From: Escherichia coli
GTDB lineage: Bacteria > Pseudomonadota > Gammaproteobacteria > Enterobacterales > Enterobacteriaceae
Assembly: GCF_001677475.2 (NCBI RefSeq)
Contig: NZ_CP015229.1
Strand: one strand, 5' to 3'
DNA length: 64,000 nt
Positions within the stretch are counted from its first letter, which is position 1. Each line of letters opens with the position of its first letter. Under the pieces are notes generated by a model, which was not told the origin of the DNA, searched no databases, and saw only the letters and a program-made list of their open reading frames with translations. The position numbers and the translations under genes were made by a program. This document shows, piece by piece, positions 7,269 through 38,719 of this stretch.

Positions 7269-10061
<2,793 letters not shown>

Positions 10062-25650: not shown

Positions 25651-26547
25651 TTACGGTACGTCGTAACCCAGTGCCGCTTTACGGATACGGAACCATTGTT
25701 GACGGGTCATTTTCAGTGTTTCAGCTTCGACAGCTGCCCGTACGCGCTCAATTTTACCTGAGCCGATAATTGGCAGCGGCTGCGACGGTAAACGTAATAC
25801 CCAGGCGTAAACCACCTGTTCAATCGAGCCCGCGTTTAACTCCTCCGCCACCACAGCCAGTTCATCACGCAGCGGCTGGAAATAATCATCATTAAACAGA
25901 CGACCACCACCAAGGCAGGACCACGCCATCGGACGAACACGCAGTTGTTGCAGTTGGTCGAGCGTGCCATCCAGCAGTAACGGCTGATGCACCGGGGATA
26001 TTTCCACCTGATTAGTGGCAAGGGTAAACGGCAGGCGTGATTGCAACAGGGCAAATTGCGCGGGCGTGAAGTTGGATACGCCAAAATGGCGCACTTTGCC
26101 GCTCTGATGCAGATGTTTAAACGCGTCCGCCACTTCATCGGCATCCATTAACGGGTCTGGTCGGTGGATTAACAGCAGATCGAGATGATCGGTCGCGAGA
26201 TTAATTAGCGACTGTTCGGCGCTCTTAATGATGTGATCGCGGTCAGTGATGTAATGACCAATGACGTTTTCTTCACGCGCGGTCGTCGCGATACCGCATT
26301 TACTGACGATTTCCATCCGTTCACGCAGGTGAGGAGCCAGTTTCAGCGCCTCGCCAAACGCCGCTTCGCACTGATAGCCACCATAAATATCAGCATGGTC
26401 CACGGTGGTCACGCCGAGATCCAGATGCTCTTCAATAAAACTGACCAGCTGGCGGGCGGACATATTCCAGTCCATCAATCGCCAGTAGCCCATCACAAAA
26501 CGGGAAAACTCCGGGCCTTGCGGCGCAATAGTAATACGCTGAACCAT
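25651..26547 (-). CDS. ydhF: Aldo-keto reductase family oxidoreductase
   Basis: 298-aa ORF. Confidence 0.85.
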   Translation of the reverse strand: MVQRITIAPQGPEFSRFVMGYWRLMDWNMSARQLVSFIEEHLDLGVTTVDHADIYGGYQCEAAFGEALKLAPHLRERMEIVSKCGIATTAREENVIGHYITDRDHIIKSAEQSLINLATDHLDLLLIHRPDPLMDADEVADAFKHLHQSGKVRHFGVSNFTPAQFALLQSRLPFTLATNQVEISPVHQPLLLDGTLDQLQQLRVRPMAWSCLGGGRLFNDDYFQPLRDELAVVAEELNAGSIEQVVYAWVLRLPSQPLPIIGSGKIERVRAAVEAETLKMTRQQWFRIRKAALGYDVP

Positions 26548-26595
26548 AATCGCTTCCTCTTATCAGATATGAGAGGAGTATACGCAAGATTAGGC

Positions 26596-26835
26596 TCAAA
26601 AGAGTGATGGTTGCTCCGGTTCGTCTGATGACGCTGGCTTATTTGCGCGTAATTTGCGCATTAATCGCTGCCGACAAAGGCGCAGCACCTCTTGTTTTTC
26701 GCCATCGCTCATTTTATTCCAGTTAAAACGCTCATCCCGACTACGAAAACAGCCGCGACAAAACCCGCGTTCGTCAGACTGGCAAATTCCCCGGCACGGG
26801 CTCTGGACGGGAAAGAACTCTAATTGCTCCGCCAC
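26596..26835 (-). CDS. ydhL: DUF1289 cysteine-rich small protein
   Basis: 79 aa; CxxxC...CxxC cysteine pattern. Confidence 0.75.
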   Translation of the reverse strand: MAEQLEFFPVQSPCRGICQSDERGFCRGCFRSRDERFNWNKMSDGEKQEVLRLCRQRLMRKLRANKPASSDEPEQPSLF

Positions 26836-27031
26836 TTCGCCCTCCTCAGATAAGTTTTACTCTAAATAATTCGAGTTGCAGGAAGGCGACGAGTGAATGA
26901 ATCCCCTGGAGCTTACTAAAGTAAGTGACTGGGGTGAGTGAACGTGGTCGCAGCACATGCAACTTGAAGTATGACGAGTGTATTACCACTATTGAAGCTC
27001 TTAATACCCAAAGTAGCAACTTTGCTTGCAC

Positions 27032-27047
27032 TAGACCGACTGGTCTA
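27032..27047. promoter_or_regulatory. Putative NemR operator TAGACC-N4-GGTCTA
   Basis: 6-bp perfect inverted arms seen 15 bp upstream of nemR start; TetR-type operator architecture. Confidence 0.5.
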
Positions 27048-27061
27048 CTACACTCCAACGC

Positions 27062-27661
27062 ATGAACAAACACACCGAACATGATACTCGCGAACATCTC
27101 CTGGCGACGGGCGAGCAACTTTGCCTGCAACGTGGATTCACCGGGATGGGGCTAAGCGAATTACTAAAAACCGCTGAAGTGCCGAAAGGTTCCTTCTATC
27201 ACTACTTTCGCTCTAAAGAAGCGTTTGGCGTTGCTATGCTTGAGCGCCATTACGCCGCATATCACCAGCGACTGACTGAGTTGCTGCAATCCGGTGAAGG
27301 TAACTACCGCGACCGCATACTGGCTTATTACCAGCAAACACTGAACCAGTTTTGCCAACATGGAACCATCAGTGGTTGCCTGACAGTAAAACTCTCTGCC
27401 GAAGTGTGCGATCTGTCAGAAGATATGCGTAGCGCGATGGATAAAGGCGCTCGCGGCGTGATCGCCCTGCTCTCGCAGGCGCTGGAAAATGGCCGTGATA
27501 GCCATTGTTTAACCTTTTGTGGCGAACCGCTGCAACAGGCACAAGTGCTTTACGCACTATGGCTGGGTGCGAATCTGCAGGCCAAAATTTCGCGCAATTC
27601 CGAGCCACTGGAAAACGCGCTGGCACATGTAAAAACCATTATTGCGACGCCTGCCGTTTAG
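27062..27661 (+). CDS. nemR: TetR-family repressor NemR (electrophile-sensing)
   Basis: 199 aa; N-terminal TetR HTH. Confidence 0.88.
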   Translation: MNKHTEHDTREHLLATGEQLCLQRGFTGMGLSELLKTAEVPKGSFYHYFRSKEAFGVAMLERHYAAYHQRLTELLQSGEGNYRDRILAYYQQTLNQFCQHGTISGCLTVKLSAEVCDLSEDMRSAMDKGARGVIALLSQALENGRDSHCLTFCGEPLQQAQVLYALWLGANLQAKISRNSEPLENALAHVKTIIATPAV

Positions 27662-27697
27662 CAGGCATTTTTTATCACCAGACGACCGGGAGCCTTT

Positions 27698-28795
27698 ATG
27701 TCATCTGAAAAACTGTATTCCCCACTGAAAGTGGGCGCAATAACTGCGGCAAACCGTATTTTTATGGCACCGCTGACGCGTCTGCGCAGTATTGAACCGG
27801 GTGACATCCCTACCCCGTTGATGGCGGAATACTATCGCCAACGTGCCAGTGCCGGTTTGATTATTAGCGAAGCCACGCAAATTTCTGCCCAGGCAAAAGG
27901 GTATGCTGGTGCACCTGGCATCCATAGTCCGGAACAAATTGCCGCATGGAAAAAAATTACCGCTGGCGTTCATGCTGAAAATGGTCATATGGCCGTACAG
28001 CTGTGGCACACTGGACGAATTTCTCACGCCAGCCTGCAACCTGGCGGTCAGGCACCGGTAGCGCCTTCAGCACTTAGCGCGGGAACTCGTACTTCTCTGC
28101 GCGATGAAAATGGTCAGGCGATCCGTGTTGAAACATCCATGCCGCGTGCGCTTGAACTGGAAGAGATTCCGGGTATCGTCAATGATTTCCGTCAGGCCAT
28201 TGCTAACGCGCGTGAAGCCGGTTTTGATCTGGTAGAGCTCCACTCTGCTCATGGTTATTTGCTGCATCAGTTCCTTTCTCCTTCTTCAAACCATCGTACC
28301 GATCAGTACGGCGGCAGCGTGGAAAATCGCGCACGTCTGGTGCTGGAAGTGGTCGATGCAGGGATTGAAGAATGGGGTGCCGATCGCATTGGCATTCGCG
28401 TTTCGCCAATCGGTACTTTCCAGAACACAGATAACGGCCCGAATGAAGAAGCCGATGCACTGTATCTGATTGAACAACTGGGTAAACGCGGCATTGCTTA
28501 TCTGCATATGTCAGAACCAGATTGGGCGGGGGGTGAACCGTATACTGATGCGTTCCGCGAAAAAGTACGCGCCCGTTTCCACGGTCCGATTATCGGCGCA
28601 GGTGCATACACGGTAGAAAAAGCCGAAACGCTGATCGGCAAAGGGTTAATTGATGCGGTGGCATTTGGTCGTGACTGGATTGCGAACCCGGATCTGGTCG
28701 CCCGCTTGCAACGCAAAGCTGAGCTTAACCCACAGCGTGCCGAAAGTTTTTACGGTGGCGGCGCGGAAGGCTACACTGATTACCCGACGCTGTAA
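27698..28795 (+). CDS. nemA: N-ethylmaleimide reductase (Old Yellow Enzyme family, FMN)
   Basis: 365 aa; OYE TIM-barrel family. Confidence 0.92.
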
Positions 28796-28875
28796 TCCAA
28801 CATTGCGAGCGGCGCAAAGCCGCCGCTATACTAAAACAACATTTTGAATCTGTTAGCCATTTTGAGGATATAAAG

Positions 28876-29283
28876 ATGCGTCTTCTTCATACCATGCTGC
28901 GCGTTGGCGATCTGCAACGCTCCATCGATTTTTATACCAAAGTACTGGGCATGAAACTGCTGCGTACCAGCGAAAACCCGGAATACAAATACTCACTGGC
29001 GTTTGTTGGCTACGGCCCGGAAACCGAAGAAGCGGTGATTGAACTGACCTACAACTGGGGCGTGGATAAATACGAACTCGGCACTGCTTATGGTCACATC
29101 GCGCTTAGCGTTGATAACGCCGCTGAAGCGTGCGAAAAAATCCGTCAAAACGGGGGTAACGTGACCCGTGAAGCGGGTCCGGTAAAAGGCGGTACTACGA
29201 TTATCGCGTTTGTGGAAGATCCGGACGGTTACAAAATTGAGTTAATCGAAGAGAAAGACGCCGGTCGCGGTCTGGGCAACTAA
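28876..29283 (+). CDS. gloA: Glyoxalase I (lactoylglutathione lyase)
   Basis: 135 aa; VOC fold ([14 protein letters not shown]-terminus). Confidence 0.93.
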
Positions 29284-29385
29284 TCTCCTGCCGGGCGTGA
29301 ACTCCTCGCGCCCGCATCTTTACTGCATCGACAAGTAATATTTGTCATAATGCGCGCTGCAATTTATCCGTATTAAGAGAATCAG

Positions 29386-30033
29386 ATGTCCGATAACGCT
29401 CAACTTACCGGTCTGTGCGACCGTTTTCGTGGTTTTTATCCTGTTGTGATCGATGTTGAAACAGCCGGATTTAACGCCAAAACCGATGCGCTGCTTGAGA
29501 TTGCCACCATCACCCTGAAAATGGATGAACAAGGCTGGCTGATGCCGGACACCACATTACATTTCCACGTCGAACCATTTGTCGACGCAAATTTGCAGCC
29601 AGAGGCCCTCGCCTTCAACGGCATTGACCCGAACGATCCCGATCGCGGCGCGGTCAGCGAATACGAGGCGCTACACGAAATTTTTAAAGTTGTGCGTAAA
29701 GGTATTAAAGCGAGCGGTTGTAACCGCGCCATTATGGTGGCGCACAACGCCAATTTCGATCACAGCTTTATGATGGCCGCCGCAGAACGCGCCTCACTGA
29801 AACGTAACCCGTTCCACCCTTTCGCCACTTTTGACACTGCTGCACTGGCCGGGCTGGCACTCGGACAAACCGTATTGTCAAAGGCTTGCCAGACCGCTGG
29901 CATGGACTTCGACAGCACCCAGGCGCACTCCGCGCTGTACGACACCGAACGCACTGCTGTGCTGTTTTGTGAAATCGTCAACCGCTGGAAACGTCTGGGA
30001 GGCTGGCCGCTACCTGCCGCCGAAGAGGTGTAA
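29386..30033 (+). CDS. rnt: Ribonuclease T (DEDDh exonuclease)
   Basis: 215 aa; DVETAG exonuclease motif. Confidence 0.93.
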
Positions 30034-30125
30034 TCGAGTCGATGCCTGATGACATGCAATGATTCAGGCATCTATAGTGAGGCTATTCCACGCATCATGC
30101 ATGATATTCACGGGGAATAGCGTTA

Positions 30126-33100
30126 ATGGCAGATAATCCAAACCTTTCATCGCCCCTGCCGGACGTGTTTTCACCGGCAACCCGCGACTGGTTTCTTCGC
30201 GCCTTTAAACAGCCGACCGCTGTCCAGTCGCAAACCTGGCATGTGGCGGCGCGAGGCGAACATGCGCTGGTGATTGCACCGACTGGCTCCGGGAAAACGC
30301 TGGCAGCATTTCTCTACGCCCTCGATCAGCTCTTCCGCGAAGGCGGCGAAGATACCCGCGAGGCGCATAAACGTAAAACCTCACGCATCCTCTATATTTC
30401 ACCGATAAAAGCCCTTGGCACCGACGTTCAGCGCAACTTGCAGATCCCGTTACAGGGGATTGCCGATGAACGGCGGCGGCGCGGCGAAACGGAAGTCAAT
30501 CTTCGCGTGGGGATCCGTACTGGCGATACGCCTGCACAGGAACGCAGCAAACTCACCCGTAATCCGCCGGATATTCTGATCACCACACCCGAATCACTCT
30601 ATCTGATGCTGACCTCCCGCGCGCGCGAAACGCTACGCGGCGTCGAAACGGTAATTATTGATGAAGTCCACGCGGTAGCAGGCAGTAAACGTGGTGCGCA
30701 TCTGGCGTTAAGTCTGGAGCGGCTCGATGCGCTGCTCCACACCTCAGCACAGCGAATTGGCCTTTCTGCCACTGTGCGTTCAGCCAGCGATGTGGCAGCA
30801 TTTCTTGGTGGCGATCGCCCGGTTACGGTAGTCAACCCGCCCGCAATGCGCCATCCGCAGATACGGATTGTCGTACCGGTCGCCAATATGGATGATGTCT
30901 CATCGGTCGCCAGCGGCACCGGCGAAGACAGCCATGCCGGCCGAGAAGGCTCCATCTGGCCATATATTGAAACGGGTATCCTTGATGAAGTGTTGCGCCA
31001 TCGCTCGACCATTGTCTTTACTAATTCGCGGGGGCTGGCGGAAAAACTGACGGCACGATTAAATGAGCTTTACGCCGCACGCTTACAGCGTTCCCCGTCT
31101 ATCGCCGTTGATGCGGCCCATTTCGAGTCGACCTCTGGCGCAACCTCTAACCGTGTACAAAGTAGCGACGTTTTTATTGCCCGCTCACACCACGGCTCCG
31201 TCTCTAAAGAACAACGAGCAATCACCGAACAGGCGCTGAAATCGGGTGAATTACGCTGCGTGGTCGCAACCTCCAGTCTCGAACTGGGGATTGATATGGG
31301 CGCAGTGGATCTGGTGATTCAGGTGGCAACGCCGCTTTCTGTTGCCAGTGGGTTACAACGCATTGGACGTGCCGGACACCAGGTAGGTGGTATCTCCAAA
31401 GGGCTTTTTTTTCCCCGAACCCGGCGTGACTTAGTCGATTCCGCAGTCATTGTAGAGTGTATGTTTGCAGGCAGGCTGGAAAACCTGACACCGCCGCATA
31501 ATCCACTCGACGTCCTTGCGCAGCAAACCGTTGCCGCCGCGGCCATGGATGCATTACAGGTAGACGAATGGTACTCCCGCGTACGCCGTGCCGCACCGTG
31601 GAAAGATCTGCCAAGACGTGTTTTTGACGCCACGCTGGATATGCTTTCCGGGCGCTATCCCTCTGGCGATTTTTCTGCTTTTCGCCCCAAACTGGTCTGG
31701 AACAGGGAGACCGGGATATTGACCGCCCGACCCGGCGCTCAGCTGTTGGCGGTTACCAGCGGTGGCACCATTCCGGATCGTGGCATGTATAGCGTGTTAT
31801 TACCCGAAGGTGAAGAACAGGCCGGTTCGCGGCGGGTGGGTGAACTGGATGAGGAGATGGTATATGAGTCGCGGGTGAACGACATTATCACTCTCGGCGC
31901 TACCTCATGGCGGATCCAGCAAATCACCCGCGATCAGGTGATTGTGACTCCTGCTCCGGGTCGTTCTGCCCGGCTCCCCTTCTGGCGTGGTGAAGGTAAC
32001 GGACGTCCGGCTGAATTAGGCGAGATGATCGGCGATTTTCTTCATTTGCTGGCGGATGGCGCGTTCTTTTCCGGGACTATTCCCCCGTGGCTGGCAGAAG
32101 AAAATACGATCGCCAATATTCAGGGATTGATTGAGGAGCAGCGCAACGCGACGGGCATCGTGCCGGGGAGTCGCCATCTGGTCCTCGAGCGGTGCCGTGA
32201 TGAAATTGGCGACTGGCGTATTATTTTGCACTCTCCCTATGGAAGACGGGTGCATGAACCCTGGGCGCTGGCGATTGCCGGGCGAATACATGCCCTATGG
32301 GGCGCTGACGCGTCTGTGGTCGCCAGTGATGACGGCATTGTTGCGCGCATTCCTGACACTGATGGTAAATTGCCCGACGCCGCGATTTTTTTGTTTGAAC
32401 CAGAAAAGTTGCTGCAAATTGTCCGCGAGGCGGTAGGCAGTTCGGCACTTTTCGCCGCCCGTTTTCGCGAATGCGCCGCGCGGGCATTATTAATGCCGGG
32501 GCGCACGCCGGGCCATCGCACCCCGCTTTGGCAACAACGGCTGCGCGCCAGTCAGTTGCTGGAAATCGCTCAGGGATATCCGGATTTTCCGGTCATTCTC
32601 GAAACCCTACGCGAATGTCTGCAAGATGTTTATGATCTTCCCGCACTGGAACGTTTGATGCGTCGCCTGAACGGTGGCGAAATTCAAATATCCGATGTAA
32701 CGACTACTACGCCCTCGCCTTTCGCCACAAGTTTATTGTTCGGCTATGTCGCGGAATTTATGTACCAGAGCGACGCCCCGCTGGCAGAGCGCCGGGCATC
32801 CGTACTGTCGCTGGACAGCGAGTTACTGCGCAATCTACTCGGACAGGTCGATCCGGGGGAATTACTCGACCCGCAGGTCATTCGCCAGGTGGAAGAAGAG
32901 TTGCAACGACTGGCTCCTGGCAGAAGAGCGAAAGGTGAAGAAGGATTGTTCGACCTGCTGCGCGAACTGGGGCCAATGACCGTTGAAGACCTGGCGCAAC
33001 GGCATACAGGCAGCAGTGAAGAGATTACGTCGTATCTGGAAAATCTTCTTGCAGTAAAACGAATCTTCCCGACGATGATTAGCGGGCAGGAGCGTCTTGC

Positions 33101-33257
33101 CTGTATGGATGATGCCGCCAGGCTGCGCGATGCCCTCGGCGTACGACTACCAGAGTCACTGCCAGAGATTTATTTGCACCGAGTCAGTTACCCGCTTCGC
33201 GACCTCTTTCTGCGCTATCTCCGGGCTCATGCTCTGGTCACGTCTGAACAACTGGCT
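30126..33257 (+). pseudogene. lhr: lhr 5' fragment (codons 1-1044 of ATP-dependent helicase Lhr), truncated by IS insertion
   Basis: Helicase Walker A APTGSGKT and DEVH box present; the reading frame continues 58 codons into the IS before a stop at 33431. Confidence 0.85.
33250..33257. repeat. Target-site duplication AACTGGCT (left copy)
   Basis: Identical 8-mer at 35667-35674; removing the IS plus one copy restores an uninterrupted lhr frame. Confidence 0.8.
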
Positions 33258-33321
33258 ATTAGACGTCAACTAGTTTTGCCGACTCGCGCCAACTATACTG
33301 GCCGCACCCTTCAGGGCGACA

Positions 33322-34077
33322 TCAAGTCGCGCTTGTTACTGCCTTCGCTGTCTTTTTCCTGTAGCTTTCCCCTTTCAGTTCGAACATATATCCGTGATGG
33401 ATCAGCCTGTCTGCCGCAGCCACCGCCATAGTCTCATCCACGAAGATGCTGCCCCACATGCTGAACGGATGGTTACTGGTTATCACCAGGCTCCCACGTT
33501 CATAGCGATGCGCTATTAACTCGAACAGCACACCCGTTTCGGCACTATCGCGTTTGACATAGCCAAGATCATCCACCACTATCACCCGGTAGCGATCCAG
33601 TTTCAGTAGCAGCTCATTCAGTTTCAACTGAGCTCTGGCTTTACGTAGTTCCTGCAACAGCTCTCCTGCGCTGTAGAACCGGGCCCGGTAGCCCTGACCT
33701 ACTACGCCATCCACGATCGCTGCCGCCAGATGGCTTTTCCCCAACCCGCTGGCTCCGAACAGCAGAACGTTTTCTCCTGCATCAACCCAGTCTGTCGTTT
33801 CACAGAGTTGCCGGAACTGAGCTCCATTCAGTTCCGGCACCTGACTGAAGTCGTATTCGCTCAGCGTTTTGGCAACTGGCAACCGGGCCTCCTTTTTATA
33901 ACGACGCAGTTTTTCACTCTCGCGCCACAGGAGTTCTTCATTGCATAGCGTCAGAAGATAGCGCGATGGTGTCCAGCCTTCTGCCAGCGCTCGTTTTTCC
34001 AGAGCGTGCCATTCAGCTCCAACTCGTGTCAGGCGTAGTTTACGCAGGCTATGTTCAAGGTGATGGATATTGCTCAC
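33322..34077 (-). CDS. istB: IS21-family helper ATPase IstB
   Basis: 251 aa; Walker A GASGLGKSHLA and Walker B VIVVDDLGY; overlaps istA by 4 nt. Confidence 0.88.
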   Translation of the reverse strand: MSNIHHLEHSLRKLRLTRVGAEWHALEKRALAEGWTPSRYLLTLCNEELLWRESEKLRRYKKEARLPVAKTLSEYDFSQVPELNGAQFRQLCETTDWVDAGENVLLFGASGLGKSHLAAAIVDGVVGQGYRARFYSAGELLQELRKARAQLKLNELLLKLDRYRVIVVDDLGYVKRDSAETGVLFELIAHRYERGSLVITSNHPFSMWGSIFVDETMAVAAADRLIHHGYMFELKGESYRKKTAKAVTSAT

Positions 34078-35573
34078 TGCGAACCTCCCTTGCCACGCAG
34101 TAGTTGCTCATAACTGCTCAGGTTATGCTGTATCACATTGACTACCGGCAACGCCTTTTCTTTTATACCCAGGAAGCGCATCAGCCGGTGCAGATCCACG
34201 TTTCCCGGGGTATTCAGCATCTGCTCCATACCTTTTGCCACGACTGAGATATCGTCGTATCCTGCAGCCAGTTTCAGGGCATGTACCATCAGCCTTCCTG
34301 CCATATCGGGCTCCAGATGATTACATAAGCGACGCCACAGCCTCCGCCATTCATCGTCCGGCAGGATGTCATTTCTCAGCGTTGCATGGCAGAACGCACC
34401 GGGCTTTTTTGCCAGACTGTCGATCACATGTCGGAAGTCGATACGACGGGCCCGCGTCTTCCCTTTTTCTGGTCTGACGCGAGGGCAGCTCATGACCTCG
34501 CTGCTGCCAACGTAACAGCTCAGACGATCGTCCCATAACCTGACCCGTAACAGTTGACCTACAAGCCGGGAAGGTACGCTGTAGACGACGTGCTTCACAT
34601 TGATGGTACTGCTGCGACTAACCCTCACAGTCAGCTCATCATAGTCAGCACTGCGACGAAGCGGCAGCGGTTTCAGATGAAGACGTTCTTCCTTGACCAG
34701 ATCCTGATTGTTACGGTTGTGCCGCATAACCTGCTGAGTGATGAAGGCCTGATATTCTTCTATGGTGCTGAAGTCGTTACTGCCCCGCAGTATCAGCGCC
34801 TGACAGATACGCCTTTTCAGATGTCCGTGGGCACTTTCAACCGAGCCATTTTCGTGGCCCCGACCGGCATTATTGTGTACGCCCTGCATTCCGTAGTGCT
34901 GACAGAGAGTAGCATAACGCTCAGTCAGCTCGCGGCGTCCATCTTCGCCCTGTTGTTTCCATGCTGCCCTCAGGCTGTCCGTTTTATGTTCTACCGGCAC
35001 TCCGCCCAGTTGTCCGAGGGCTTCCTGCAGGCCTTCAGCCAGAGCAGAGAAGCTCTCACCACCCAGAACAACCCGCATCCAGCTCCAGTGGCTCCATTCC
35101 AGACGGAAGTGATACAACTTATGCGCCAACAACTTACCGGCGATGGTGACAACTACACCTTTCAGTTCAGTAAAGTCCGACAGGCCTCGCAGGCCGGGCT
35201 GATGTTGCTGGCGGAACATGACCTCCTGCTCTGTACCATACTGTAGTTTCCATTCGCGAACCCGCCGTTGCATTGTTCTTCGAAGGCTGTTGGGGTACTG
35301 GCCGGGATATTTATCCTGTAGCATCTCCAGTAGAGTTGTTGGTGTCAGAGCCGGCCTCTCTTTCAACAGAGGAACAAGCATGCTGTCCCACACAGCTTCC
35401 AGAGGATCTTTGCGTGTGCGCCAGTGCCGAACACTGTTTTTTGCCCACTCTCCTTTTTCGATCCGACGACCAGAACGGACTGAGATACCAGCCTTCATGG
35501 CCGAGATATGCTGAGTTATACCTTTCTTACGCTGAGTCATATAGTAACTGACCTGAGAAGTATTGAGCGTCAC
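34074..35573 (-). CDS. istA: IS21-family transposase IstA
   Basis: 499 aa; N-terminal HTH region and central DDE integrase-like domain; gene order istA then istB typical of IS21 family. Confidence 0.85.
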   Translation of the reverse strand: MTLNTSQVSYYMTQRKKGITQHISAMKAGISVRSGRRIEKGEWAKNSVRHWRTRKDPLEAVWDSMLVPLLKERPALTPTTLLEMLQDKYPGQYPNSLRRTMQRRVREWKLQYGTEQEVMFRQQHQPGLRGLSDFTELKGVVVTIAGKLLAHKLYHFRLEWSHWSWMRVVLGGESFSALAEGLQEALGQLGGVPVEHKTDSLRAAWKQQGEDGRRELTERYATLCQHYGMQGVHNNAGRGHENGSVESAHGHLKRRICQALILRGSNDFSTIEEYQAFITQQVMRHNRNNQDLVKEERLHLKPLPLRRSADYDELTVRVSRSSTINVKHVVYSVPSRLVGQLLRVRLWDDRLSCYVGSSEVMSCPRVRPEKGKTRARRIDFRHVIDSLAKKPGAFCHATLRNDILPDDEWRRLWRRLCNHLEPDMAGRLMVHALKLAAGYDDISVVAKGMEQMLNTPGNVDLHRLMRFLGIKEKALPVVNVIQHNLSSYEQLLRGKGGSQ

Positions 35574-35666
35574 GCCATTTCCTGTTGGATCATGTAAATG
35601 ACACTCAGGTTACAAAACCGGCCAGAATAATCGGCGCCAGGCGGACTGAGTTATTGTCGTCTCATA

Positions 35667-35674
35667 AACTGGCT
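35667..35674. repeat. Target-site duplication AACTGGCT (right copy)
   Basis: Identical to 33250-33257. Confidence 0.8.
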
Positions 35675-37159
35675 CATGAGTTTAGTCTCGGTATTGCCAT
35701 TGTCGAAGAGCAACTTCAGCAACTGCGCGAACAAGGGCTGGTGATGAATCTGCAACAAGACATCTGGGTGAGCGATGAAGTATTTCGTCGTCTGCGTTTG
35801 CGCTCGCTGCATGCCGCCAGAGAAGCGACGCGTCCCGTTGCGGCCACGACCTATGCGCGATTGCTGCTGGAACGTCAGGGCGTATTACCCGCCACCGATG
35901 GTAGCCCGGCACTCTTTGCCTCAACATCGCCAGGCGTTTATGAGGGCGTGGATGGCGTGATGCGGGTGATCGAACAGCTTGCTGGCGTTGGTTTACCCGC
36001 CTCACTCTGGGAAAGCCAGATCCTGCCTGCCCGCGTACGCGACTATTCGCCAGAAATGCTCGATGAATTACTGGCAACCGGTGCGGTTATCTGGTCGGGG
36101 CAAAAAAAGCTGGGTGAAGATGACGGTCTGGTGGCACTGCATCTACAGGAATATGCCGCAGAATCGTTCACTCCCGCCGAAGCAGATCAGGCGAATCGTT
36201 CGGCGCTGCAGCAAGCGATAATCGCTGTTCTGGCTGACGGAGGAGCCTGGTTTGCACAACAAATCAGCCAACGGATACGCGATAAAATCGGCGAATCGGT
36301 TGATCCCTCGGCTCTGCAAGAGGCGTTATGGGCGCTGGTCTGGCAAGGCGTCATTACCAGCGACATTTGGGCACCGTTACGCGCCCTCACCCGTAGCAGT
36401 TTCAACGCACGCACCTCAACTCGCCGCAGTCACCGGACTCGTCGTGGGCGTCCTGTCTATGCACAACCCGTCTCGCCGCGGGTATTTTACAACACACCAA
36501 ATCTGGCTGGACGCTGGTCGTTATTGCAGGTGGAGCCACTAAACGATACCGAAAGGATGCTGGCGCTGGCGGAAAATATGCTCGACCGCTACGGCATCAT
36601 CAGTCGTCAGGCGGTGATAGCCGAAAATATCCCTGGTGGGTTTCCATCGATGCAAACGCTTTGTCGAAGTATGGAAGACTCCGGGCGAATTATGCGAGGT
36701 CGTTTTGTAGAAGGTCTGGGTGGCGCGCAATTCGCTGAACGTCTGACTATTGACCGATTGCGCGATCTGGCGACACAAGCCACGCAAACGCGCCACTATA
36801 CACCAGTGGCGCTCTCTGCCAACGATCCGGCTAATGCATGGGGAAATCTTCTGCCCTGGCCTGCACATCCGGCAACGCTGATACCAACGCGTCGGGCGGG
36901 TGCGCTGGTGGTCGTTTCTGGCGGCAAATTGTTACTCTATCTGGCGCAAGGTGGCAAAAAAATGCTGGTCTGGCAGGAAAAAGAGGAATTACTCGCTCCA
37001 GAGATTTTCCACGCGCTGACTACCGCACTGCGTCGCGAACCACGGCTGCGCTTTACGCTAACAGAAGTGAATGACCTACCGGTCCGGCAAACGCCGATGT
37101 TTACGCTGCTGCGTGAGGCGGGATTTTCAAGTTCGCCACAAGGGCTGGATTGGGGATAG
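35675..37159 (+). pseudogene. lhr: lhr 3' fragment (codons 1045-1538)
   Basis: Frame resumes with HEFSLGIAIVEE; the two fragments sum to 1538 codons, the length I recall for intact Lhr. Confidence 0.85.
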
Positions 37160-37209
37160 AGAAAGGACTGACGGATGCCCGTTCGCATCCGTCAGTATTG
37201 CAGGACGGA

Positions 37210-37557
37210 TTATTCAGCGTCCGGCTCTTCAGACTTGTATTTAGCGGCAGTTTCTTTGATCAGCTGCTGCAGTTCGCCACGCTGATACATTTCGATCACG
37301 ATATCACAACCGCCGACCAGCTCGCCGTCAACCCACAGTTGCGGGAAGGTCGGCCAGTTAGCATATTTCGGCAGTTCCGCACGAATGTCCGGATTCTGCA
37401 GGATATCAACATAGGCAAAACGTTCGCCACATGCGGCAAGCGCCTGGACTGCCTGGGCAGAGAAACCGCAGCTCGGCAGTTTCGGTGAACCTTTCATGTA
37501 CAGCAGGATCGGGTTTTCAGCAATCTGGCGTTGGATTTTTTCGATAGTGGTGCTCAT
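37210..37557 (-). CDS. grxD: Monothiol glutaredoxin Grx4
   Basis: 115 aa; CGFS active site. Confidence 0.92.
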   Translation of the reverse strand: MSTTIEKIQRQIAENPILLYMKGSPKLPSCGFSAQAVQALAACGERFAYVDILQNPDIRAELPKYANWPTFPQLWVDGELVGGCDIVIEMYQRGELQQLIKETAAKYKSEEPDAE

Positions 37558-37891
37558 TGTCTTGCTTCCTCAAACTTCTTTACGGCAGTAATCTGACATT
37601 GTAGCGGGTCAGTGCGGCATCGGGAAATAACATTTTCATCACGCTTTTGCTATTTTATCCCTTTGCTCTAATTGTTGCATTTCAAATATTCGTTTCTTCC
37701 CTGACGCAAGGCAAACTGGCGTATTTATGACCATTTTTAGCTTTCACTGCTGCATTTTTTTGCGCTCGCCGACGAAACGTATTTTTTAACAATAAAAGCT
37801 ATTAACTTTCTCTTCTTCTATGCATTAGAATTATCAAGTTTTGTAAATCAGACGCAGGCATGATAGACCTGCCTTAACAGAGGGACGCTCA

Positions 37892-38719
37892 GTGGCGCGG
37901 ATAAACCGTATTTCGATCACGCTCTGTGCTTTACTTTTTACCACCCTGCCTTTAACGCCTATGGCCCATGCTTCAAAGCAAGCCAGGGAGAGTTCTGCTA
38001 CTACTCATATCACCAAAAAAGCAGATAAAAAGAAAAGCACGGCAACCACCAAAAAGACCCAGAAAGCCAGCCAGAAAACAGCGAAAAAAGCCGCCAGTAA
38101 AAGTACGATCAAAAGCAAAACCGCTTCTTCCGTTAAAAAATCTTCCATTACCGCTTCTAAAAACGCCAAAACTCGCAGCAAACACGCCGTCAATAAAACG
38201 GCCTCAGCCAACTTTACCGAAAAGTGTACCAAACGTAAGGGCTATAAATCGCATTGTGTGAAAGTCAAAAATGCCGCGTCAGGAACCCTTGCCGACGCGC
38301 ACAAAGCGAAGGTGCAAAAAGCCACGAAAGTGGCAATGAATAAACTGATGCAGCAAATTGGTAAGCCATATCGTTGGGGCGGCAGCTCACCGCGTACCGG
38401 TTTTGATTGCAGCGGCCTGGTTTATTACGCTTATAAAGATTTGGTGAAAATTCGTATTCCGCGTACGGCGAATGAAATGTATCACCTGCGAGATGCAGCG
38501 CCAATCGAACGTAGTGAACTGAAAAACGGCGACCTGGTCTTTTTCCGTACTCAGGGACGCGGTACAGCCGATCATGTCGGCGTATATGTCGGCAACGGCA
38601 AATTTATTCAGTCACCGCGTACGGGTCAGGAAATTCAAATCACTTCTCTCAGTGAAGACTACTGGCAGCGCCACTATGTTGGCGCTCGCCGGGTAATGAC
38701 CCCAAAAACACTTCGCTAA
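37892..38719 (+). CDS. mepH: NlpC/P60-family peptidoglycan endopeptidase
   Basis: 275-aa ORF from GTG; signal peptide, Lys/Ser/Thr/Ala-rich low-complexity linker, C-terminal NlpC/P60 Cys-His domain (DCSGLV). Confidence 0.85.
   Translation: MARINRISITLCALLFTTLPLTPMAHASKQARESSATTHITKKADKKKSTATTKKTQKASQKTAKKAASKSTIKSKTASSVKKSSITASKNAKTRSKHAVNKTASANFTEKCTKRKGYKSHCVKVKNAASGTLADAHKAKVQKATKVAMNKLMQQIGKPYRWGGSSPRTGFDCSGLVYYAYKDLVKIRIPRTANEMYHLRDAAPIERSELKNGDLVFFRTQGRGTADHVGVYVGNGKFIQSPRTGQEIQITSLSEDYWQRHYVGARRVMTPKTLR

Follow-up and report, generated by a model that had tools for sequence, protein, structure and literature searches.

Full-length bacterial Lhr, known from E. coli (1538 aa) and M. smegmatis (5V9X, 7LHL), joins in one polypeptide of ~1500 aa an N-terminal Lhr-Core, with SF2 helicase motifs and a ratchet Trp, and a C-terminal domain (CTD) of five WH modules and a β-barrel that carries Asp1536; in its conserved context the gene adjoins rnt (PMC7437997). 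The laboratory construct EcoLhr-Core (aa 1–877) is a soluble, monomeric, ssDNA-dependent ATPase and 3'–5' translocase that unwinds RNA:DNA hybrids, less well than the full-length enzyme, with no detectable DNA:DNA unwinding (PMC8053096). Natural Lhr-Core proteins of 800–900 aa are widespread (PMC8053096, PMC7437997), and their genes adjoin MPE nuclease genes (PMC7437997). E. coli Lhr requires D1536 for its uracil-DNA glycosylase (UDG) activity; EcoLhr-CTD (aa 876–1538) alone binds DNA poorly and has weak UDG activity, and the QxQ motif of AlkZ is absent from the Lhr CTD (PMC10953399).

In M. smegmatis, Lhr-Core is stably expressed, reaching the wild-type level in cells, and fails to complement an lhr deletion; a full-length Lhr mutant unable to tetramerise fails likewise (PMC9841417). 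The CTD is needed in vivo for crosslink repair in M. smegmatis, whereas E. coli lhr deletion mutants have no crosslink phenotype. Their phenotype is mild, with moderate sensitivity to AZT and H2O2.

The locus described here lies in a window of 64,000 nucleotides from an E. coli chromosome (NZ_CP015229.1). As in other E. coli, lhr follows an intact rnt (RNase T, 215 aa; 29386–30033, plus strand), which differs from rnt of strain 118UI at two residues, and all domains of full-length Lhr are present in the DNA. In contrast to the known proteins, however, a 2.4 kb insertion sequence (IS) follows codon 1044, and no polypeptide joins the motor with the tetramerisation and glycosylase modules.

Insertion of ISEc10 into lhr

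The element is a complete ISEc10 of the IS21 family, 2409 bp in length, on the minus strand at 33258–35666, with its IRR end towards the 5' part of lhr and its IRL end towards the 3' part. It encodes an istA transposase of 499 aa with a GTG start (34074–35573, minus strand; NF033546 transpos_IS21, E 5e-67) and an istB helper ATPase of 251 aa (33322–34077, minus strand; PF01695 IstB_IS21, E 9e-62; NF038214, E 2e-79), both NCBIfam matches being above cut-off. The two genes, read from 35573 to 34074 and from 34077 to 33322, overlap by 4 nt. This overlapping pair of DDE transposase and AAA+ helper, the imperfect terminal inverted repeats at 33257–33304 and 35619–35666, the duplicated target AACTGGC(T) and near-identity to annotated ISEc10 copies in RefSeq (100% coverage, 99.8–99.9% identity, 2404–2406 of 2409 nt) together identify the element. 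The target-site duplication AACTGGCT flanks it at 33250–33257 and 35667–35674. Judged against two further ISEc10 copies, T33257 may be the first base of the IS, which would then measure 2410 bp, with a start at 33257 and a 7 bp duplication (AACTGGC); assigning this base to the IS leaves both reading frames unchanged.

Elsewhere in E. coli the identical element, with identical ends, has likewise split genes, for instance those for a TonB-dependent receptor and a transglycosylase. The exact IstA protein is found in 145 collection blocks, and its surroundings there are prophages, plasmids or chromosomal islands. The copy in lhr looks intact and mobile, and is probably still active. What sets it apart is its target, since lhr is hit in none of the 5426 complete genomes and in none of the nine listed contexts of the exact IstA.

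The insertion divides the plus-strand lhr gene into a 5' fragment of codons 1–1044 (30126–33257; delimited by Pfam, PRK09751 and 5V9X/7LHL alignments) and a 3' fragment of codons 1045–1538 with the stop (35675–37159). The codons alone span 35675–37156, and number 494 as the first-pass annotation had counted. Removal in silico of the IS and one copy of the repeat restores an lhr gene of 4617 nt and 1538 codons with no internal stop, whose product differs from Lhr of strain 118UI at 14 residues. Neither half contains a stop or frameshift. The insertion is the gene's sole lesion and, given the absence of such damage, a recent one. We envisage that an E. coli chromosome ordinary in other respects received one complete ISEc10 in its lhr gene by transposition, with 7–8 bp of target duplicated and codon 1044 separated from codon 1045.

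Misplacement of a repeated IS within lhr by the assembler might be suspected, as ISEc10 is present in up to 14 places per genome and the junction is absent from all other public sequence searched. The perfect 8-bp direct repeat of the lhr target and the exact restoration of the frame are, however, the signature of real transposition, and both junctions fall at true IS tips common to other copies; such an artefact is scarcely credible.

The lesion is strain-specific. The lhr-IS junction is found in 0 of 5426 complete RefSeq E. coli genomes, nor does it occur among GTDB species representatives or JGI metagenome contigs, and no chimeric protein of 1101 aa is on record. Identity of the window to each complete E. 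coli genome is only 98.6–99.0%. A nonsense codon at position 564 inactivates lhr in a further E. coli lineage, which fits dispensability of the gene. In the 5' part of lhr 9 private substitutions are synonymous and 1 is non-synonymous; the 3' part has 9 and 5, respectively. With a background non-synonymous:synonymous ratio of 0.31–0.41, these counts are too small to infer relaxed selection.

The 5' fragment and the helicase core

From its ATG the 5' fragment reads on into the IS to give a chimeric ORF of 1101 aa (30126–33431, plus strand) that consists of Lhr 1–1044 and an IS-derived tail of 57 aa, IRRQLV...CLPQPPP, before a TAG stop; the peptide at the junction would be AHALVTSEQLAIR. The first-pass annotation placed both this ORF and the 524-aa ORF beyond the IS correctly in every coordinate, and its count of 58 codons into the IS agrees with 57 IS-encoded residues plus the stop.

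The fragment comprises Lhr-Core (RecA1, RecA2, WH1 and the DEAD_assoc domain), followed by WH2 and by 1.5 helices at the start of WH3; Pfam identifies DEAD, Helicase_C, WH_Lhr, DEAD_assoc and WH2_Lhr. Of the helicase motifs, APTGSGKT and DEVH, already noted as kept, lie at residues 51 and 179 (motifs I and II), and motifs III (SAT, 214) and VI (QRIGRAGH, 411) are also retained, as is W620. The N-terminal Lhr-Core, with its SF2 motifs and ratchet Trp, is present in full. The ORF matches NCBIfam PRK09751 (NF007284) with 2351 bits over model positions 1–1047 and aligns over residues 10–876 with 5V9X, the crystallised Lhr-Core construct from M. smegmatis, which bears out the earlier claim of a complete helicase core.

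The native lhr start, its Shine-Dalgarno sequence (duplex ΔG −5.7 kcal/mol) and the upstream rnt context are unchanged. In the rnt-lhr spacer a consensus scan finds a promoter-like site, ATGACA-18-TATAGT (30049–30078, plus strand; 10 of 12 matches), which we regard as a candidate only, since such sites in the region are not above shuffled-sequence counts. Unchanged signals of this kind would be expected to drive transcription and translation of the chimera, and a truncated enzyme may therefore be made. Such a protein would be built of Lhr-Core, WH2 and a broken WH3, followed by 57 unrelated residues that end in Pro-Pro-Pro before the stop; it would be monomeric, with neither tetramer interface nor glycosylase module, and would at best resemble EcoLhr-Core, with ATPase, 3'–5' translocase and weakened RNA:DNA unwinding activities.

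The chimera does not belong to the natural Lhr-Core subfamily. Although it includes the whole Core, it has 167 additional CTD residues (WH2 and the broken WH3) and the 57 foreign ones, and its gene neighbours rnt, not an MPE nuclease gene. It may nevertheless work like a Core protein.

Could the insertion then have separated the functions of Lhr, leaving a stable 1101-aa protein that, as a monomer, serves in vivo as an RNA:DNA helicase or translocase resembling Lhr-Core, with only the glycosylase and tetramer functions lost? The complete Core with all its motifs, the intact native expression signals, the solubility and in vitro activity of EcoLhr-Core (PMC8053096), the wide occurrence of natural Lhr-Core proteins (PMC8053096, PMC7437997) and the wild-type level of MsmLhr-Core (PMC9841417) speak for it. 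However, neither MsmLhr-Core nor tetramer-defective full-length Lhr complements (PMC9841417), EcoLhr-Core loses DNA:DNA unwinding (PMC8053096), and the broken WH3 and foreign tail ending PPP-stop may promote misfolding, proteolysis or ssrA tagging. According to PMC7246954, which cites Hayes 2002, termination can stall at a proline in the C-terminal position and ssrA tagging can follow; in a reporter library the effect of Pro-Pro on expression was small, 0.81-fold. We consider this outcome unlikely. The narrower proposal of a stable monomeric Lhr(1–1044) chimera with motor activity in vivo, optionally accompanied by a separate AlkZ-like fragment begun at Met1068 or Met1140, is more doubtful still. 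If true, such a separation-of-function allele would allow each activity of E. coli Lhr to be dissected in a wild strain.

The 3' fragment and its expression signals

The 3' ORF (35585–37159, plus strand) encodes 524 aa from a TTG, of which 30 codons derive from the IS end and the duplicated target and the remainder are Lhr 1045–1538. It matches PRK09751 over positions 1032–1538 with 1034 bits, below the 1496-bit cut-off. Domain annotation, suggested earlier as a check on the two fragments, places Core and WH2 in the 5' ORF and the Pfam domains WH3_Lhr and WH4_Lhr in this one, which holds the rest of WH3, WH4–WH6, the β-barrel with the glycosylase residue D1536, and the tetramer interface. With the IS removed, the DNA encodes the entire CTD, with five WH modules, β-barrel and Asp1536; as it stands, Core and CTD are split after codon 1044.

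The site of the break was located on an AF2 model (mean pLDDT 90.4) of the CTD as reconstructed, and Foldseek matches to 7LHL (E 1e-38), AlkX/YcaQ and AlkZ validate this model. The break falls at model residue 167, inside helix 163–170, which is helix 2 of WH3, in a block with pLDDT 97; neither half therefore has a whole WH3. In an alignment that equates E. coli 1044 approximately with M. smegmatis 1022, the tetramer-interface residues H1199, R1206 and R1286 of the M. smegmatis protein, and indeed all the main interface residues, are C-terminal to the break. Compared with EcoLhr-CTD, AlkZ and YcaQ (AlkX), the 3' fragment keeps WH4–WH6, the β-barrel and D1536, and its fold matches 7LHL, 9ZD6 and 5UUJ; unlike EcoLhr-CTD, it is missing WH2 and half of WH3, and signals for its expression are not evident.

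The TTG at 35585, 82 nt in from the end of the IS, shows no Shine-Dalgarno pairing (duplex ΔG −2.5 kcal/mol, compared with −5.7 at the native lhr start), in line with the earlier remark that it lacks an obvious RBS. There are two candidate internal starts on the plus strand: an ATG at 35744–35746 (Met1068), which falls on the first wing strand of WH3 and has a weak SD-like AAGGG (ΔG −4.2), and a GTG-ATG at 35957–35962 (Val1139/Met1140), inside the first WH4 helix, preceded by GAGGG (ΔG −6.1). The consensus scan finds no promoter-like site from which the 3' part would be transcribed, in a region where the counts of such sites do not exceed those of shuffles. No outward IS promoter for the fragment was found; an outward −35-like TTGACG does exist, located at the opposite end of the IS and pointing away from the fragment, with no −10 in the adjoining flank.

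The 3' part also lies ~2.2 kb downstream of the premature stop, and the intervening RNA is antisense to istAB and contains no long ORF. Across the IS the plus strand has 29.8% C and 23.5% G, and 10 of 217 windows there are rut-like, compared with 9 of 306 in lhr itself; the bias of C over G is real but modest, so that Rho loading is a supporting argument only. Such modestly C-rich RNA would be expected to undergo Rho-dependent polarity. An Rfam scan of 26000–38500 gave no match. With no promoter-like site, a first start devoid of Shine-Dalgarno pairing and a position behind ~2.2 kb of RNA that has no long ORF, useful expression of the 3' part is improbable.

These features bear directly on whether both halves are expressed, the 3' fragment (from TTG 35585, Met1068 or Met1140) serving as a stand-alone AlkZ/YcaQ-like glycosylase or re-associating with the 5' product. 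Its reading frame is open, shows no damage and still encodes D1536, both Met1068 and Met1140 have an SD-like sequence before them, WH4–WH6 and the β-barrel form an AlkZ-like module (Foldseek; PMC8053096), and the purified CTD has weak UDG activity alone (PMC10953399). Against this stand the missing promoter-like site and the distance from the premature stop, the break inside a helix that denies a whole WH3 to either half, and the poor DNA binding of the isolated CTD (PMC10953399). Nor do databases offer a precedent in their apparent stand-alone CTD proteins: among the 'CTD-only' representatives of ~600–700 aa that might pass for naturally split Lhr genes, most have no start Met or set in partway through a domain, and the two that were checked are full-length lhr genes fragmented by gene-calling, frameshifts or what looks like an in-frame interruption. 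The fold of a stand-alone glycosylase is thus present, but neither a promoter nor a convincing start for independent expression was found; joint expression of the two halves is highly improbable, and the separate C-terminal fragment proposed in the first-pass annotation finds no support in the sequence, which offers no promoter-like site, no Shine-Dalgarno at the TTG and half of WH3.

Probable consequences of the lhr::ISEc10 allele

We conclude that the allele is an ordinary, strain-specific IS pseudogene, lhr::ISEc10, and most likely null or severely hypomorphic for the repair function of Lhr. The insertion as a whole is probably best explained as loss of the tetrameric helicase-glycosylase function, leaving a null or strongly hypomorphic allele. 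Evidence for an essential role of the CTD in Lhr activity, named at the outset as what would count against a functional truncated product, is to a large extent already in the literature, in the M. smegmatis complementation results and the requirement for D1536. A partly functional helicase is biochemically possible, as EcoLhr-Core is active in vitro, but biologically unlikely, because the M. smegmatis Core and tetramer mutants fail and D1536 resides on the 3' fragment; the M. smegmatis requirement for the CTD is carried over to E. coli by analogy. Some residual function may persist, given that EcoLhr-Core keeps real enzymatic activity in vitro. The expected phenotype would be mild and like that of an lhr deletion, with moderate AZT and H2O2 sensitivity.

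The choice between a null and a partly functional allele has thus largely been answered by published truncation and complementation work in E. coli and M. smegmatis. In this genome lhr should be annotated as the pseudogene lhr::ISEc10, and its two ORFs should not be taken for separate helicase genes. The finding matters little beyond the annotation of the strain, which could serve as a convenient natural lhr mutant.

Anatomy of the interrupted gene

Two plus-strand lhr reading frames, one of 1101 aa (30126-33431) and a TTG-initiated one of 524 aa (35585-37159), enclose two ORFs, 499 and 251 aa long, on the minus strand in the ORF table. Deletion of the IS together with one copy of the repeat leaves an ORF of 4617 nt, equal in length to lhr of the reference strain E. 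coli 118UI, with no internal stop and with 78 nucleotide and 14 amino-acid differences from it. Since removal of the IS restores an uninterrupted ORF of lhr length, the coordinates in the first-pass annotation are correct, as are its counts of 1044 lhr codons, 57 IS codons plus a stop, and a 3' part of 494 codons. This anatomy is certain, and it is very improbable that misassembly placed the IS in lhr. The tryptic peptide across the junction of the chimera, the 1101-aa product, is predicted from sequence to be AHALVTSEQLAIR, its wild-type Lhr counterpart being AHALVTSEQLAHEFSLGIAIVEEQLQQLR.

The 499-aa ORF is the IS21-family transposase IstA and the 251-aa ORF the helper ATPase IstB (Pfam, NCBIfam). 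Over its full length, the 2409-bp stretch 33258-35666 shares 99.8-99.9% identity with elements annotated ISEc10 in RefSeq. Imperfect terminal inverted repeats occupy 33257-33304 and 35619-35666, and the direct repeat AACTGGCT flanks the element at 33250-33257 and 35667-35674. Judged against two other ISEc10 copies, T33257 is perhaps the first IS base, in which case the duplication would be 7 bp, a reading immaterial to the lhr frames. The exact IstA of this copy also turns up in numerous other settings, prophages and plasmids among them, and ISEc10 is therefore mobile.

At the IS end distal to istB, an outward -35-like TTGACG (33264-33269, minus strand) lies 6 nt from the tip and recalls the junction promoter of tandem IS21 copies. 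The lhr flank has no -10 at 16-18 nt from this motif, so a hybrid promoter antisense to lhr is not predicted. Another promoter-like site, TCGACA-16-TAAACT (35679-35706, minus strand; 9/12 matches, a consensus match only), lies wholly within lhr and the duplicated target. It is directed into the IS, toward istA, and could fortuitously drive transposase expression.

Domain content and structural position of the break

The 5' ORF covers positions 1-1047 of the Lhr equivalog model (NCBIfam) and carries the Pfam domains DEAD, Helicase_C, WH_Lhr, DEAD_assoc and WH2_Lhr. Its alignment with 5V9X, the crystallised Lhr-Core of M. smegmatis, extends over residues 10-876, and that with 7LHL reaches Msm residue 1022. 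Intact motifs I, II, III and VI, together with Trp620, bear out the earlier statement that this fragment keeps the helicase motifs. The 3' part matches Lhr model positions 1032-1538, Pfam WH3_Lhr and WH4_Lhr, and 7LHL residues 1025-1442, and includes Asp1536.

The structure of the reconstructed C-terminal domain (CTD, residues 878-1538) was predicted from a 59-sequence alignment obtained by representative search (mean pLDDT 90.4, pTM 0.84). Foldseek matched this model to 7LHL (E 1e-38) and then to the AlkX/YcaQ and AlkZ glycosylases, in agreement with the literature. In Lhr numbering, the predicted WH2 comprises helices 937-948, 953-958 and 964-976 and hairpin 980-993, and WH3 comprises helices 1023-1033, 1040-1047 and 1051-1063 and hairpin 1067-1077. 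Because the second WH3 helix spans 1040-1047, the break after residue 1044 is predicted to fall inside it, in a block of pLDDT 97. By the same model, an intact WH3 is absent from both products.

Apparent stand-alone CTD proteins in databases were rejected as a precedent for a split Lhr, the two checked being fragmented full-length genes. These metagenomic "CTD-only" proteins, P0009 and P0050, are pieces of full-length lhr (loci L025, 865-5121, and L026, 2509-6971); in L025 a short gap separates core and CTD matches that share one frame, and in L026 several frameshifts interrupt lhr. Such database fragments can look like genes split between domains.

Genomic context and rarity of the allele

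At 98.6-98.8% identity, the window aligns colinearly to the 118UI stretch running from malI to sufS; the IS and an intergenic insertion of 120 bp (26861-26980) are the only large differences, and the order gloA-rnt-lhr-grxD is canonical. End-to-end gapless alignment with no premature stop is seen for 55 of the 60 other reference genes; the remaining five are anmK and ydhW, with in-frame indels (6 and 12 nt, respectively), mdtK and ydhS, whose alignments fall 6-10 nt short at the 3' side, and malI, which the window edge truncates. As premature stops and frameshifts are absent from the others, lhr is the sole gene seen disrupted among the reference genes tested in the window.

The ~120-bp insertion, missing from 118UI, lies between ydhL and nemR; its core, AATCCCCTGGAGCTTACTAAAGTAAGTGACTGGGGTGAGTGAACG, resembles an ERIC/IRU repeat, and it has no Rfam match. 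When rsxC, which is intact with 12 aa differences, is compared with the reference, an internal 96-bp tandem repeat array (9495-10012) shows up as multiple offset self-matches.

Not one of 5426 complete E. coli genomes carries the lhr::ISEc10 junction, which was likewise not found in GTDB representative genomes or metagenome contigs; the insertion is therefore a private, recent event. Database searches returned no record of the chimeric Lhr-IS protein, and the lhr halves show no detectable sign of post-insertion decay. Across 1-64000, identity to the best of the 5426 complete RefSeq genomes is 98.6-99.0%, with the same gene order, and the source lineage seems to lack close representation among complete E. 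coli genomes.

Expression and functional reading

The 5' ORF still begins at the original lhr start (SD duplex -5.7 kcal/mol), preceded by the rnt-lhr spacer with a promoter-like site at 30049-30078. The new C-terminus of the chimera is IRRQLVLPTRANYTGRTLQGDIKSRLLLPSLSFSCSFPLSVRTYIRDGSACLPQPPP-stop. A C-terminal proline is reported to cause stalled termination and ssrA tagging, the Pro-Pro effect being only modest in reporter data (PMC7246954).

No SD precedes the TTG at 35585 (-2.5 kcal/mol), in keeping with the first-pass remark that no ribosome-binding site was obvious there. In-frame ATGs with SD-like sequences occur at Met1068 (-4.2) and Met1140 (-6.1), both within predicted secondary-structure elements. 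A consensus scan found no promoter-like site reading into the 3' part, and counts of promoter-like and terminator-like sites are not above those of shuffles. A 3' transcript would require ~2.2 kb of read-through, antisense to istAB and without a long ORF; Rho-dependent polarity across such RNA is expected on general principles, and the composition of the stretch (29.8% C, 23.5% G) lends this modest support. The 3' fragment is probably silent, and we think it unlikely that it is independently expressed or re-associates with the 5' product.

EcoLhr-Core (1-877), soluble and monomeric, is an active ATPase and translocase, weaker than full-length Lhr in RNA:DNA unwinding and seemingly devoid of DNA:DNA unwinding; full-length Lhr is oligomeric via the CTD (PMC8053096). 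M. smegmatis Lhr-Core accumulates normally but brings back resistance to neither mitomycin C nor cisplatin; the full-length H1199A-R1206A-R1286A protein, which forms no tetramer, likewise fails (PMC9841417). The interface positions mutated there all fall on the C-terminal side of the break. [quoted passage not shown]

Whether the split gene is null or partly functional, left open in the first-pass annotation, is largely settled by such published truncation and complementation work. The 5' part may give rise to a chimeric, monomeric protein that contains the Core and would lack tetramerisation and glycosylase activity; residual Core-like activity of the chimera in vivo remains as an unlikely alternative reading. 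Most likely, lhr::ISEc10 is a recent loss-of-function allele.

The dispensability of lhr is underlined by another E. coli lineage whose lhr carries a nonsense codon at position 564 (locus L005, 12429-17045 of DABAWA010000001.1, GCA_012531655.1; one listed match, with 47 similar places besides). There lhr has no gene call, and it represents an independent pseudogene lineage. An IS-interrupted non-essential gene is ordinary and well understood, and what is new here is the particular allele only.
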